Virus genome (UHGV): UHGV-0132371
Strand: one strand, 5' to 3'
DNA from: a virus
Length of the DNA: 45,879 bases
Shown here piece after piece: positions 4,371 through 33,979 of the stretch; position 1 is the first letter of the stretch, and every line of letters begins with the position of its first letter. The notes beneath the pieces were generated by a model, which was given only the letters and a program-made list of their open reading frames with translations, had not been told where the DNA came from and searched no databases. The translations under genes and the position numbers were made by a program.

Positions 4371-5288
4371 TTATCGCTTGGCTTCGCCGCCGAGAGAGGT
4401 TGTTAATCCGTTAATGAGAGAGATAAGCTCGCCGGTCATCAGAACAAAGTCAGCGTCGAACCGCTGAGCCGCATCCTCACGGTCGATATCGTCGTTTTGT
4501 TCTGTAATCTCATTAGAGAACTTAAGGCGTTTGATGCTGCCGTCATCGCAAAGAACGAACTGAATGCGCTGTTGCCAGTCGATAGACAGCTTTGTAACTA
4601 CTTTGCCAGCTTCCAGATGCACATGAATTTCGTCACTGACCAGAGTCTGTTTTTTAAAGCGTCCAATACCGCCATCTTCAAGAATAGCTTTCAGTTCGGC
4701 TTCATCACCCAGGCCAAAGCCAGCAGGCGCACTACCGGAACGAACCCATTCGGTCATAGTTAGTTCGATCGGCGTTTCCATAGTCAGCGGTACCACCGGG
4801 AGAGAACCGAGAGTTTTACGAAGCAGGGCCAGTGAGTCTTCGGCACGTTTAGCGCTGGCTGCATCAACCATGATCAGACCGTCGGTGACGTTGATCCACA
4901 AACTAACAGTCGAGTTTTTGGAGAACGCCCGAGGAAGCAGGGAGTGCAACACTTCATCACGCAGCGAATCTTTCTCAGTTTTTTTGAGGCGACGCCCCTG
5001 ATCGGATTCCAGACGCGACACACGCTTGCGCAGTTCTTCAGCAATGACAGGAGATGGCAGTATTTTTTCTTCCCGGCGAATAACCAACAACACTTGATTA
5101 TTGACAGTGTGATGCAAGCGATCTGACAGCTGACCAAGTGGTGATACCCAACCGGTTTTTGCCATATCCTGGCTACCGCATGGAGTGAAGCGAAATAGTT
5201 CAAGCTGCTGTTCCAGCTCTTCCTGGTTGATGGTGAAATCGCGACTAATGCGATACACCAACATATTTTTGAAAAACGGATTGTTCAT
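4371..5288 (-). CDS. rdgC: Recombination-associated protein RdgC homolog
   Basis: 305 aa, alignable by eye along its whole length with E. coli RdgC ([11 protein letters not shown]..., [37 protein letters not shown]). Confidence 0.85.
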
Positions 5289-5340
5289 TCTCGGTTCCTC
5301 AACGCCTCTGCACCGGCGCTAAAAAGTTAGTTTCTCCATA

Positions 5341-5452
5341 CACAACAGAGAAGGGCACCTGCATTGGTCGGCGGCTTGCAGAGACCGCTTTCTTTTTGCC
5401 CGGGTGGATTGGGTTATGAGCCCGTCGCCCGGTGATGCCCTTTTCTGTTGTG
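5341..5452 (-). other. Long imperfect hairpin (16 of 18 bp stem, about 76 nt enclosed) in the leader between the first early-left gene and rdgC
   Basis: CACAACAGAGAAGGGCAC at 5341-5358 pairs with ATGCCCTTTTCTGTTGTG at 5435-5452; GC-rich interior with further self-complementarity. Confidence 0.4.
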
Positions 5453-5600
5453 CCCTGAAAAAGGCTGGCGGTTACCGGAAATACACGGGAAAACACCGGG
5501 CCGCCAGAACAGGGAGTTACTTGTTATTGCTTTAGCCTGCTTTTAACCACATCAGGCGCGGTGGTATCTTGGTGTTCTCACACAACCAAGAGGGATGTTT

Positions 5601-5798
5601 ATGGGCGCTTTTGATAACCAGGAAATTACGTTACCCGCATGCCCTAAGTGCGGCACTAAGACGAAGAAGAAAATCGCTTGGCTCAAGTCGAACAAAAGTT
5701 TCACTTGTCGATGTGGAGCTACTATCAATGTCAACAGCAGCCAGCTTACTTCCGAAATCAGGATGGTTGAGGACAAGCTGAAGAAGCTCTTTAAATAG
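5601..5798 (+). CDS. Small zinc-ribbon protein (CPKCG...CRCG), antisense to the early-left gene
   Basis: AGAGGGA RBS, possible TGnTATCTT promoter upstream, hairpin plus T-run downstream; but it overlaps the minus-strand ORF 5631..5996, so it may be a shadow frame. Confidence 0.35.
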   Translation: MGAFDNQEITLPACPKCGTKTKKKIAWLKSNKSFTCRCGATINVNSSQLTSEIRMVEDKLKKLFK

Positions 5799-5996
5799 TT
5801 TTTTATCGACTGATATTATTTCGTTATCAGAGGTTGGTTTTTCAGCCTCTGATTTTTTAGTCAGGATCATTTTTTCTACACATGTGACTACGCATTCCGA
5901 ACAGATGGCAGGTTCGTCCTTACCACCTTTTGCGACGATCTTTATCGCTCCCAGTTCGGTTGCTCCGCAAAATGAGCATGTGAATAAATGATTCAT
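5631..5996 (-). CDS. ClpX-type zinc-finger protein, first gene of the leftward early operon
   Basis: N-terminus LFTCSFCG...(x19)...ICSECV..C closely matches the ClpX N-terminal zinc-binding domain; GAGG RBS before the ATG at 5996. Confidence 0.5.
   Translation of the reverse strand: MNHLFTCSFCGATELGAIKIVAKGGKDEPAICSECVVTCVEKMILTKKSEAEKPTSDNEIISVDKKLFKELLQLVLNHPDFGSKLAAVDIDSSSTSTSETFVRLEPSDFLLRLSAALRACG
5826..5859 (+). terminator. Possible hairpin terminator after the plus-strand small ORF
   Basis: ATCAGAGG...CCTCTGAT inverted repeat followed by TTTTTT; large loop, so weak. Confidence 0.3.
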
Positions 5997-6014
5997 GTAA
6001 ACCTCTACCCCCAA

Positions 6015-6252
6015 CCTAAGTTTTCTGTCAGCGAATCATCCGGTTATTCATATGCCACCGGCGGCTACTTCGTGGGCGTCCTGCCTGTTCGCTGTTGATG
6101 AATACATAATTAACCAATGGCTAATATTTGTAAACAACCAATAGTTAATTTTTGAGTGTTTAGGAATTAACTCAATGATTTTTAATAAAATATATTTTGT
6201 TGTTAAGTGATGACGTGCTTAAAAAAAACACCATCTACAAAAGAGGAGTGTT
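6015..6252. promoter_or_regulatory. AT-rich intergenic region; candidate early-left promoter/operator and promoter of the plus-strand small gene
   Basis: Very AT-rich with repeated GTTAAT/ATTAAC half-site-like motifs also present in the cI-cro intergenic region. Confidence 0.3.
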
Positions 6253-6459
6253 ATGGAACGTGATGATCTGGAAGAAGACCGCGCAGCGTTCATTGCTGGC
6301 GAGATAGGCGGAGTGGTGATTCAGTTAATCATCGAAGGGATCGAAATCAACCGTGATAATATCGTTGAGTATCTGGAGGCAAAGCGTCGCGCGGTTGGTA
6401 ACGTGATCCACAAAGGCTTGCTGAGAGATGCTGCGGAATTTGTGAGGAAAGGGCAATAA
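6253..6459 (+). CDS. Small acidic hypothetical protein (68 aa), moron-like
   Basis: Strong AAGAGGAG RBS; AT-rich upstream region; opposite orientation to neighbours. Confidence 0.5.
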   Translation: MERDDLEEDRAAFIAGEIGGVVIQLIIEGIEINRDNIVEYLEAKRRAVGNVIHKGLLRDAAEFVRKGQ

Positions 6460-6481
6460 AAACCCGACGCGGTGGTCGGGT
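6456..6481 (-). terminator. Rho-independent terminator ending the cI-cargo operon
   Basis: CCCGAC-CACCGC-GTCGGG hairpin followed by a U-tract on the minus strand, immediately after the stop at 6481. Confidence 0.55.
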
Positions 6482-6672
6482 TAGAACAGGAGTTTAACTG
6501 CGGCTAGGGTCAGACCTGTGATTGTAAAGATCGCACCAACTATCGACCAAGTCTGAATCCTGAGTTCCTTTTGTAGGTCTTCTCGTGTCGCGTAATTAGA
6601 CTTGATAACAGCAACATCAGTCTTAATGGACGCGATATCTACCTCAAGCTGCCTAACTCTTGCTTCAAGCAT
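6481..6672 (-). CDS. Small coiled-coil protein with C-terminal transmembrane helix (XhlA-like architecture)
   Basis: Start chosen at MLEARV, which has GGAGGTGA 6 nt upstream (track ORF extends to 6795 and would overlap the upstream gene); hydrophobic C-terminus [22 protein letters not shown]. Confidence 0.5.
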
Positions 6673-6739
6673 ATCATCACCTCCGCCATCTCCGCCTCGT
6701 CGTGTTATTGCAGGTAGTTCACTATTAAATGGTACTACA

Positions 6740-7087
6740 TTATTTTGCGGCGTCGGCATTTTTTTCATCTTCCGTTTTTGCCGGGAATTTTTCATTTACC
6801 CAGTTAAGAACTGAAAACGCATTTATATGTGTTTCATTTCCACAATTGTTGCATATTAGTGAAAAGTAATACTGGTTAGCAGTATCGGAATAAATGCTTT
6901 TTTCAGTAAAAACATTTACATAACTACCAAGCGCCATAGTGCATGGCATTCCAACACTCGCACTGACTTGAGGCACCGTTAACCTGTCATGCCCACATAG
7001 CGTGCATTTTAGATATATATTCTTTTCTGAGAAGTAAGAGACTAACATGTCCATGTTGATCCTTTCGAACCCCTGTTCACTCGCCAT
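6740..7087 (-). CDS. Zinc-ribbon protein (CTLCG...CNNCG), gene directly downstream of cI
   Basis: 115 aa, GAGGA RBS, starts 16 nt after the cI stop, so probably co-transcribed with the repressor. Confidence 0.55.
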
Positions 7088-7103: not shown

Positions 7104-7838
7104 TTAAAGTCGATTATATTTAATTGACTCATGAATCAATGCCTTACCCATGACATAAAGCTGATCCTGATTCGCCTCATTGATGTACCACTTTTCATAT
7201 GCAGAGTTATCAGACAGAACAGCGAGCTTGTCACCTTGCATCTGTAGGCGCTTAACATGAAACGTCTTACCGTATACGAAAGAGTAAACACCGTCGGTCT
7301 GGAAGTGACGAACTGAGATGTCGACGAATAGTCGATCACCAGAAACGAGGGTTGGTGACATACTGTCGCCGTTAACAGTCATGACCTTCACATCTTCTGG
7401 ATCGCGATTTCCAAAAAGCACTCGGGCATGTTCAGTCGTGAACTCAATGGCGTACAAGACTTCAACATAGTCAGAAAGCATGTAGGTGCCAGGTCCAGCA
7501 CTGACAGATAAATCCAGAACTTCAACGCGATAAACATCCTGCTCTGGCTTATTAACCATGCGTTTCACTTCCCCTGTATCTGTTGGCTCACCAACACCGT
7601 ATTCCAGCCATTCGGCACGTACACCAAGTACTTTACTGAGAGCCACTATTTTCTGACTGTCCGGTATGGCCTGGGCGTTGAACCACTTCCAAACTCCAGG
7701 TGTAGTGATCTCCACCCCGGCTTTATTAAGCAGGTCTGCAAGGTTTTTGTTTCGTCCCCGACCAGTTAATCCAGCAAGTTGACAAACTTGCAGCAGCCTA
7801 GTCGTGAAACCTTCTTTCGTTTCGTCTCTCTTAACCAT
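7104..7838 (-). CDS. cI: CI-like prophage repressor (N-terminal HTH, C-terminal S24 LexA-type peptidase domain)
   Basis: VNGDSMSPTL serine motif and downstream HVKRL lysine; divergent from a Cro-like gene. Confidence 0.85.
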   Translation of the reverse strand: MVKRDETKEGFTTRLLQVCQLAGLTGRGRNKNLADLLNKAGVEITTPGVWKWFNAQAIPDSQKIVALSKVLGVRAEWLEYGVGEPTDTGEVKRMVNKPEQDVYRVEVLDLSVSAGPGTYMLSDYVEVLYAIEFTTEHARVLFGNRDPEDVKVMTVNGDSMSPTLVSGDRLFVDISVRHFQTDGVYSFVYGKTFHVKRLQMQGDKLAVLSDNSAYEKWYINEANQDQLYVMGKALIHESIKYNRL

Positions 7839-7921
7839 TAGTTAAATATCCGGGAACTTGACTTTGCTGTCAGTTAATATTTATTATTAACTTGTGGTTA
7901 ATTTTGTAATCAGGAGAGTCA
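7839..7921. promoter_or_regulatory. Divergent immunity promoter/operator region (PRM/PR-like)
   Basis: 83 bp AT-rich spacer between divergent cI and cro-like genes containing GTTAATATTTATTATTAAC and TTAACTTGTGGTTAAT dyads. Confidence 0.5.
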
Positions 7922-33227: not shown

Positions 33228-33979
33228 GTCTTAATGCTGATTATCAAAAACTCGAGCCGGGCAATGAAGTCCGGCTTTTTTCTGTCGATGGCACAGCGTT
33301 CGGTATGTCAGATGTACTCCGCTTCCACGCACATAACATCGCGCATACCCCGGAAGAGATTGAGGCTGCTGGCGGTGATGAAAATAAACTGCCAGCAAAA
33401 TCTATCTGGTGGCAGGGTGAGGAGTATAAAGCGTGGCCATGCCAGATTGATGGGATCGAAGCTTCAACCTCGGGAAGTAGTGCCCAGCCAAAACTTTCGG
33501 TTGCTAACCTCGACAGTTCGATCACCGCGCTTTGCCTGGCTTACGACGATATGCTGCAGGCGAAGGTGACGATACATGACACCCTTGGTAAGTATCTTGA
33601 TGCGAGAAACTTCACCGGAGGCAATCCGACAGCCGATCCGACCCAGGAGAAGCTGAAGGTTTTCTACATCGATGCAAAGAGCAGTGAAACCAATGAAGTT
33701 GTTGAGTTCACACTATCCAGCCCGATGGACCTGCAGGGGCAAATGATCCCGACGCGACAGCTTCATTCCCTGTGTACCTGGTGCATCCGGAATAAATATC
33801 GTACCGGCGACGGCTGCGACTATGCCGGCACCCGCTATTTCGATAAAAACAACAACCCGGTAAGCGATCCGTCGCTGGATGAATGCAACGGAACGCTGAC
33901 GGCCTGCAAACTTCGGTTCGGTGAAAACAACGAACTCTCGTTTGGTGGGTTCCCGGGTACGTCGCTGATCAGGAGTTGA
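33224..33979 (+). CDS. L: Minor tail protein gpL
   Basis: Lambda L-like, including the C-terminal cysteine cluster. Confidence 0.8.
   Translation: MSLNADYQKLEPGNEVRLFSVDGTAFGMSDVLRFHAHNIAHTPEEIEAAGGDENKLPAKSIWWQGEEYKAWPCQIDGIEASTSGSSAQPKLSVANLDSSITALCLAYDDMLQAKVTIHDTLGKYLDARNFTGGNPTADPTQEKLKVFYIDAKSSETNEVVEFTLSSPMDLQGQMIPTRQLHSLCTWCIRNKYRTGDGCDYAGTRYFDKNNNPVSDPSLDECNGTLTACKLRFGENNELSFGGFPGTSLIRS

Follow-up and report, generated by a model that had tools for sequence, protein, structure and literature searches.

The gene orf68 of the virus genome UHGV-0132371, whose complete stretch of 45,879 nucleotides (nt) is here called the window, encodes a small protein of 68 amino acids (aa) and lies between the early-left promoter and operators (PL/OL) and the end of the cI repressor operon, divergent from PL and convergent with the cI operon. 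orf68 is a real gene under strong purifying selection, and its product is remotely related to YmgB/AriR of Escherichia coli, a small connector protein that binds SpoT and activates the Rcs phosphorelay (PMC10704370). The best explanation, which we hold at about even chances, is that orf68 constitutes an autonomous accessory cassette, inserted back-to-back with PL/OL, whose YmgB-type connector would act on host SpoT and/or Rcs. The cassette would comprise its own extended −10 promoter, a short 5′ untranslated region (5′UTR) with a strong ribosome-binding site, the 68-codon gene, and a hairpin that also ends the cI operon. By analogy with YmgB, the partners bound by the product would be signalling proteins of the host, and neither DNA nor phage defence systems. 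Its likeliest target would be the TGS/helical region of SpoT, with a rise in guanosine tetraphosphate (ppGpp), and/or the Rcs phosphorelay, with induction of capsule and repression of motility and curli; through either target the phage would reset the physiology of the cell that it occupies. Within this mechanism we infer the assignment of the orf68 promoter, its expression in lysogens versus after induction, and the biochemical target of the protein.

6253..6459, + strand: orf68 coding sequence (CDS), 68 aa plus stop codon, ATG start, YmgB/AriR-like three-helix protein
6240..6248, + strand: ribosome-binding site of orf68, AAAGAGGAG, read from the sequence, 4 nt 5′ of the ATG

A first-pass annotation of this DNA had described an acidic 68-aa open reading frame (ORF) with a near-consensus ribosome-binding site, transcribed opposite to all its neighbours. 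Its observation is confirmed, and its interpretation, taken up below, is partly supported. The Shine–Dalgarno sequence AGAGGAG (6242–6248) stands 4 nt before the ATG, and an AGAGG-type sequence occupies the same spot in relatives. The protein is indeed acidic, if mildly so, with an isoelectric point (pI) of 4.9, a net charge of −4.4, and 14 aspartate and glutamate residues against 10 lysines and arginines. The adjacent genes all lie on the − strand, as had been said; the opposition to all neighbours is nevertheless incomplete, as 5595–5853 may hold a further ORF on the + strand, together with a terminator of its own.

Conservation and selection of orf68

Conservation was assessed in 80 viral contigs that carry a homologue at least 74% identical to the single orf68 protein, a set that is therefore biased to close relatives. 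An ORF of exactly 207 nt is intact in 81 of 81 copies (the 80 contigs and the window). Across the 62 distinct CDS the median pairwise ratio of nonsynonymous to synonymous change (dN/dS) is 0.063 at a mean dS of 1.4, and the variable columns fall on the three codon positions as 40/24/68, so that all 68 third positions vary. These selection data exclude a spurious ORF. The first-pass annotation had looked to conservation in related elements as one check on its proposal, and on this point the gene holds up, with the ORF kept in all 81 copies, a dN/dS of 0.06, and a fixed position in 73 of 74 loci.

The family itself is larger than this set. Among 5.8 billion proteins, 598 relatives of orf68 were found; they form 70 clusters at 50% identity, are nearly all 63–75 aa long, and belong to Enterobacteriaceae prophages, with Escherichia, Salmonella, Citrobacter, Enterobacter, Klebsiella and Raoultella as hosts. 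The protein matches phrog_3975 over its full length (expect value, E, 7e-35). At the level of DNA, a relative occurs in only 17 of 5,426 complete E. coli genomes, and every one of these is annotated as hypothetical.

Remote homology to YmgB/AriR

Searches with the single orf68 sequence gave no usable match in Pfam (E ≤ 0.1), NCBIfam, PADLOC or the sequences of the Protein Data Bank (PDB). A profile of 35 family members matches 2OXL_A (E. coli YmgB/AriR) at E = 9.6e-5, the sole credible match, and hhalign aligns the family with AriR at 76% probability and E = 2.3e-5. PF10798 is touched by only 3 of the 35 relatives (best E 0.016); the sequence link is a remote homology below curated thresholds. 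AlphaFold2, given the family alignment, predicts a three-helix model (predicted local distance difference test score, pLDDT, 94) whose fold superposes on the YmgB crystal structure 2OXL, and Foldseek with this model places YmgB first (probability 1.0, template-modelling (TM) scores 0.77/0.84, root-mean-square deviation 0.7 Å) with nothing else below E = 1. A UniRef entry labels an identical sequence ‘Biofilm development protein’. Several independent results, from the profile match and hhalign to the AlphaFold2/Foldseek comparison and the UniRef label, thus link orf68 to YmgB/AriR, and the homology and structure searches that had been proposed for this gene have led to a relative.

Alignment of orf68 with the K-12 paralogues YcgZ, YmgA and AriR shows a common G-x-x-V-x-x-L motif and a conserved leucine. 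At the alignment level, R58 of orf68 corresponds to AriR R74 in both the HMMER and the hhalign alignments; it sits within the RDAA motif of the family, where arginine is present in most members and the following D59 is at least 90% conserved. In AriR, the helix 3 substitution R74G abolishes SpoT binding and ppGpp accumulation, and only the SpoT effect is lost; this effect is independent of the activation of the Rcs phosphorelay by YmgB, which is seen as mucoidy (PMC10704370).

Two other roles for the protein have to be set against that of a host connector. The gene product might modulate the switch of the phage itself, by binding CI, Cro, CII or RecA, or by acting in an Hha-like manner with H-NS on the AT-rich OL DNA, and so bias the choice between lysis and lysogeny or the response to induction. 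Such a role would suit a gene that lies within the immunity region, where the repressor differs widely from phage to phage, and that is flanked by extremely AT-rich DNA, and PMC13516484 cites Lee et al. 2007 for the original description of YmgB as Hha-like; we consider such a role unlikely all the same. A more distant prospect is the one that the first-pass annotation had raised, an anti-defence or superinfection factor in the form of a small acidic DNA mimic or defence inhibitor, perhaps working with the neighbouring cI-linked genes. The gene sits in an accessory-gene hot spot, and its product is small and acidic, but the net charge is only −4.4, neither PADLOC nor any other search gave a match, the predicted fold is unambiguously that of YmgB rather than of a DNA mimic, and the genes of the neighbouring cassette co-occur in only 2–6 of the 80 loci, all of which makes a counter-defence function very improbable. 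The same annotation had also suggested a modulator, and this fits the homology to a connector: orf68 is a probable modulator. That it is so highly conserved in phages whose repressors are unrelated suggests a host partner that is itself conserved, and orf68 probably tunes host stress signalling rather than countering host defences.

A fixed position among variable partners

In phi80, HK225 and HK639 the homologues occupy the same place as in the window, between PL/OL and the end of the cI operon, and read rightward, divergent from PL. They are HK225_042 in HK225, HK639_46 in HK639, and in phi80 an unannotated 69-aa ORF of 42% identity (contig L002, 2498–2707; JX871397, about 33348–33557). In phi80 the third CI operator annotated in OL stands immediately to the left of the ORF, which shares the extended −10 block and the terminator hairpin. 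Among the viral loci with enough flanking sequence, a convergent S24-type repressor gene is found within 4 kb of orf68 in 73 of 74, at a gap that ranges from 63 to 3023 nt; compared with four reference cI proteins, the repressors show identities of 25% to 100%. The spacing from orf68 to the leader of the PL transcript is constant at 182–193 nt in 25 loci.

In the window, the genes on either side are the following.

5996..5631, − strand: ClpX-zinc-finger ORF, 121 aa, PL operon
6795..6481, − strand: orf104, coiled coil and C-terminal hydrophobic segment, phrog_6324
7087..6740, − strand: orf115, CxxC zinc-ribbon-like, phrog_4293
7838..7104, − strand: cI

orf115 and orf104 (6481–7087, − strand) sit between cI and the terminator, with an overlap of 56 nt as listed, and both are rare among phages with orf68. 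The proposal that orf68 acts with this cI-linked cassette does not agree with the recurrence of its genes, orf115 in 2 and an orf104-like gene in 6 of the 80 loci, or with the variable gap to the repressor. The gene can also be missing altogether. In the prophage of E. coli Nissle 1917 the PL arm is 98.8% identical to that of the window (5000–6108), the repressor lies directly beside PL, and orf68 is absent, as it is from ST64B and SfV. The varied repressors and cassette genes and the absence in Nissle 1917 together make orf68 an accessory to the immunity region, with no fixed operon shared with its neighbours.

On the other side of PL, a 67-aa ORF with a CxxC...CxC zinc-ribbon pattern and a good ribosome-binding site (5595–5798, + strand) is followed by a strong + strand intrinsic terminator (5826–5853, a 12-base-pair stem and T-run). 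This ORF runs antisense within the C-terminal half of the 121-aa ClpX-zinc-finger ORF and has weak family matches (Lar/YnfU-like, E about 0.004–0.006). With relatives of the − strand protein only about 70 aa long, the stretch where the two ORFs overlap may in fact be part of a second rightward gene.

Transcription signals and the left operators

Comparison of 64 distinct upstream regions revealed a block that is kept across operator and repressor types and runs ATTTATTTTT, a spacer of 12–14 nt, TGnTATGCT, CAAAAAAACAYCA, AGAGG, ATG. TGnTAnnnT is found in 46 of the 64 regions, ending 23–28 nt before the start codon, and the hexamer TATGCT in 36; the layout of the block is that of an extended −10 promoter and a brief leader. 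The window copy departs from this pattern by a 3-nt insertion in the −10 element, found only in the lineage of the window and contig L128, which is identical to the window here. The only consensus-like promoter remaining in this copy is TTAACT-18-TATATT, whose −35 doubles as a TTAAC operator half-site.

6208..6219, + strand: relic of the extended −10 TGnTATGCT, degenerate (TGATGACGTGCT), with the conserved A-run and 5′UTR after it, from the upstream comparison
6167..6196, + strand: alternative promoter-like site for orf68, TTAACT-18-TATATT, predicted by consensus scan at 9/12 positions
6134..6106, − strand: early-left promoter PL, TTTACA-17-AATTAT, predicted by consensus scan, back-to-back with the orf68 promoter
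6110..6124, no strand assigned: OL1-like operator TTAACCAATGGCTAA, from a TTAAC-N5-GTTAA scan and repeats common to the cI–cro intergenic region, overlapping the PL −10
6134..6148, no strand assigned: OL2-like operator ACAACCAATAGTTAA, from the same scan and repeats
6167–6181: weak third operator candidate (TTAAC half-site), read from the sequence
6461..6482, − strand: terminator hairpin of the cI operon, also the 3′ end region of orf68, from a terminator scan, T-run on the − strand

An extremely AT-rich region upstream of orf68, expected also to contain the early-left promoter, had been part of the first description. It is found at 6113–6252, where the GC content is 26.4% against 50.8% in the whole window and only 0.09% of 140-nt intervals are as low; the GC minimum of the entire window falls at about 6095. 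The adjoining 6015–6112, which had been counted in with it, is 48% GC and is the transcribed PL leader rather than an AT-rich spacer. The promoter was correctly anticipated: the PL-like candidate overlaps two TTAAC-N5-GTTAA operators, and a conserved leader RNA starts a few nt downstream. Three copies of this operator motif also lie between cI and cro (7831, 7863 and 7887), and a scan of the window for TTAAC-N5-GTTAA-type sites gave 32 matches against 15.7 expected. In that region a PRM-like promoter (7873..7845, − strand, CTGACA-17-GATATT) has its predicted start at or beside the cI start codon at 7838, which itself falls within the operator at 7831–7845; a leaderless cI mRNA is thereby implied. 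The cI mRNA of lambda is leaderless.

A sharp mosaic joint at about 6108 divides this segment. Over positions 5000–6108 the identity to prophages, among them that of E. coli Nissle 1917, is 98.8–99.1%, and the likeness to Nissle 1917-type prophages ends at the PL −10 and OL1. Judged by these identities, the immunity module to the right of about 6108, orf68 included, is of different origin from the PL arm.

The distances between operators and the orf68 promoter vary between immunity types, and a uniform PRM-like operator geometry was rejected on this ground. In phi80 the annotated OL3 is centred at about −44 relative to the predicted promoter of the orf68 homologue and ends 1 base pair into the predicted −35. 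HK639, whose ATAAC-N4-GTTAT operators are confirmed at OR, has no more than a half-site at −42 and its closest good operator at about −65; the closest strong one in window-type phages is at about −85.

These distances bear on the possibility that a protein of the same biochemistry is expressed under the control of OL, from a promoter that cI, bound to the outermost operator of OL, would repress or, in the manner of PRM, activate. Production of the YmgB-like protein would on this view be confined to one state of the switch, either just after induction or infection or in stable lysogens. We give this a real but minor chance. In its favour are the occurrence of orf68 homologues only beside OL/PL, the constant 182–193 nt to the PL leader in 25 loci, the overlap of the third CI operator of phi80 with the predicted −35, and the coincidence of the predicted −35 with a TTAAC half-site in the window. 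It is weakened by an operator–promoter geometry that is not uniform, as HK639 and the window-type phages illustrate, and by the conservation of the promoter block irrespective of operator sequence.

At the other end of the gene, the cI operon terminator had been placed to the right of orf68, where the hairpin 6461–6482 now stands. Its T-run on the − strand makes it the terminator of the leftward cI operon. The same AAAAACCCGGCGCGGTGGCCGGG hairpin is present 3′ of the homologues in phi80, HK225 and HK639 and is conserved along with orf68; the window, phi80 and HK639 have the T-run on the − strand, and a T-rich + strand tail follows only in HK225. As the hairpin has no + strand T-run, read-through antisense to orf104, orf115 and cI is possible, and with the convergent layout in 73 of 74 loci this would fit an element in which the transcript matters rather than the protein, rightward transcription into the cI operon damping it by interference or antisense pairing. 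The dN/dS of 0.06, the invariant ORF length and the conserved ribosome-binding site, however, show selection on the protein, so that such damping could at most be an added effect; as the explanation of orf68 it has the slimmest chance of those considered. In descending order, we rank the alternatives to the autonomous connector cassette as OL-coupled expression, a role in the switch of the phage or as an Hha-like protein, anti-defence, and convergent transcription.

A structured leader RNA at the start of the PL transcript

Separate from the orf68 unit, the 5′ end of the PL transcript carries a structured RNA that is conserved in more than 100 temperate enterobacterial phage genomes.

6022..6101, − strand: structured leader RNA, 5′ end of the PL transcript, from conservation and covariation
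6088–6092/6031–6035: helix P1 of the leader RNA
6083–6085/6075–6077: helix P1a
6057–6061/6040–6044: helix P2

The leader RNA starts about 8–12 nt after the predicted PL start site. It forms an unannotated island, 87–97% identical over about 70 nt, in some 30 otherwise dissimilar phage records, among them ST64B, SfV, SfII, SfIV, ZF40, YeP1-3, phiNP and mEp460. A pattern scan of viral contigs yielded at least 120 loci and, with other loci, at least 141 copies and at least 97 distinct sequences. Over 54 distinct sequences the two helices P1 and P2 covary strongly: 91% of the cells are paired, and double-change cells number 141, against 38 in shuffled controls and no more than 38 in slid ones. Each position of P2 has four or five pair types, and RNAalifold recovers the same helices. 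They enclose a 24-nt invariant core, AGGACGCCCACGAAGUAGCC, whose invariance is partly imposed by the search pattern. Wobble pairs number 9 G·U against 8 A·C, a count that leaves the folding strand undecided. The covariance model matches a single site in the window, at 100.7 bits, and no second copy was found there. Among the matches listed, an S24 repressor gene in the same orientation ends upstream of the RNA at a median of 174 nt in 104 of 105 loci, which makes it consistently a PL leader.

The leader RNA had no Rfam match at E ≤ 1, and its covariance model found nothing at the HK022, HK639, phi80 and HK225 loci, the put or nut leaders of HK022, HK639 and phi80 included. Comparison with the put sites of HK022 and HK639 and the nutL leader of phi80 gave only a short GAAGU(U)AGCC likeness, and the alignment to HK639 putL is unconvincing. 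By analogy, the RNA is possibly a put-like, N-independent antiterminator; a strong − strand terminator was looked for in the window's PL operon and not found, which leaves the antitermination idea without an obvious target here. Independently of orf68, the RNA is a candidate for a new way of controlling early-left transcription through RNA.

A subgroup (L012, L017, L009 and some 15 further viral loci) has a hairpin, AGCGCCCUACAGGACGCU, and then an rrn-type boxA, GCTCTTTAACAA, directly 3′ of the leader RNA; the window lacks them. This arrangement suggests a Nus-dependent antitermination site downstream of the leader RNA. phi80, HK225 and HK639 share a different, near-identical PL leader of about 60 nt, AUCGAAACGAAACAUCGAYAGCUGAGSGAAGUUAGCCAGCGGCG (L001 2300–2350, L002 2300–2350, L003 2285–2350, − strand), which precedes nutL in phi80 and putL in HK639 and has only GAAGU(U)AGCC in common with the leader RNA of the window.

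Interpretation of the cassette

Several observations weigh against an autonomous connector cassette. The strict placement beside OL suggests a coupling to repressor occupancy that a purely autonomous moron leaves unexplained. In the window copy the conserved −10 is broken by the 3-nt insertion, so that expression would rest on a weaker predicted promoter, and the hairpin 3′ of orf68, with its T-run on the opposite strand, leaves the cassette without a canonical terminator of its own. The window protein reaches significance with none of the models of Pfam, NCBIfam or PADLOC, and at about 20% identity to AriR a common fold and ancestry do not guarantee common targets. The effects of YmgB itself were seen on overexpression, and its own physiological trigger is not known (PMC10704370).

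If the connector reading is right, plausible consequences that we infer are a raised level of ppGpp, with an effect on the choice between lysis and lysogeny, and an induced capsule able to exclude other phages. ppGpp is linked to the lysis–lysogeny balance in lambda. The orf68 family would also be a candidate source of the chromosomal ycgZ-ymgAB unit, and would provide its function in hosts that are without it. [quoted passage not shown]

A wider reading is more speculative, and we are doubtful of it as a whole. As the orf68 promoter is interleaved with the OL operators in every carrier phage, the amount of connector would report the state of the switch, and orf68 could be a repressor-coupled host-signalling device whose YmgB-like product conveys the state of immunity to SpoT/ppGpp and/or Rcs. 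The chromosomal ycgZ-ymgA-ariR beside e14 would then have descended from such a cassette, and, as a separate matter, the PL-leader RNA might represent a new class of N-independent antiterminator. A device of this kind would provide feedback on the maintenance of lysogeny, capsule-based exclusion of other phages, or both.

To our knowledge, YmgB/AriR is among the few small proteins that switch SpoT toward ppGpp synthesis and activate Rcs. That a related family is borne by phages, is under strong purifying selection and, in many temperate enterobacterial phages, forms part of the OL/PL control region suggests that phages reprogram host stress signalling, and it offers a handle on the purpose of YmgB-type proteins and on the influence of prophages on ppGpp, capsule, biofilm and persistence. 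Literature searches found nothing relevant, either on a YmgB/AriR carried by phages or on any gene described from this position in phi80 or HK225, and a minimal phage-borne YmgB/AriR homologue locked to the OL/PL region appears to be undescribed in the searchable literature.

Comparison with known systems

The leader RNA resembles the put RNAs of HK022 and HK639 in its length of about 70 nt, its high degree of structure, and its position within about 10 nt of the PL start, and the phages concerned show no N-like gene as the first gene of the PL operon. It differs in having no sequence or covariance-model similarity to HK022 putL/putR or HK639 putL, and in its architecture, in which two hairpins within a closing helix accompany a 24-nt invariant single-stranded core in one copy per genome.

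Compared with YmgB/AriR (b1166; PDB 2OXL; PF10798; paralogues YmgA and YcgZ), the orf68 protein stands at about 20% identity and below the Pfam threshold, and it is without the disordered N-terminal region of about 25 residues found in AriR. Whereas YmgB is encoded in the BluR/BluF-controlled ycgZ-ymgABC operon, orf68 lies in a prophage immunity region back-to-back with PL, and its family is commonest in Salmonella, Citrobacter, Enterobacter and Klebsiella.

In its genetic organisation, orf68 is like a moron such as lambda bor and lom, or the HK97 gp48/gp49-type cargo next to cI, in being a short accessory unit with its own predicted promoter that is present or absent between otherwise near-identical prophage arms, within the hot spot for accessory genes between cI and PL. 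It departs from these morons in its invariant position, in a promoter interleaved with OL, and in a terminator hairpin that serves the opposing cI operon, and, while the cargo between orf68 and cI varies, orf68 stays.
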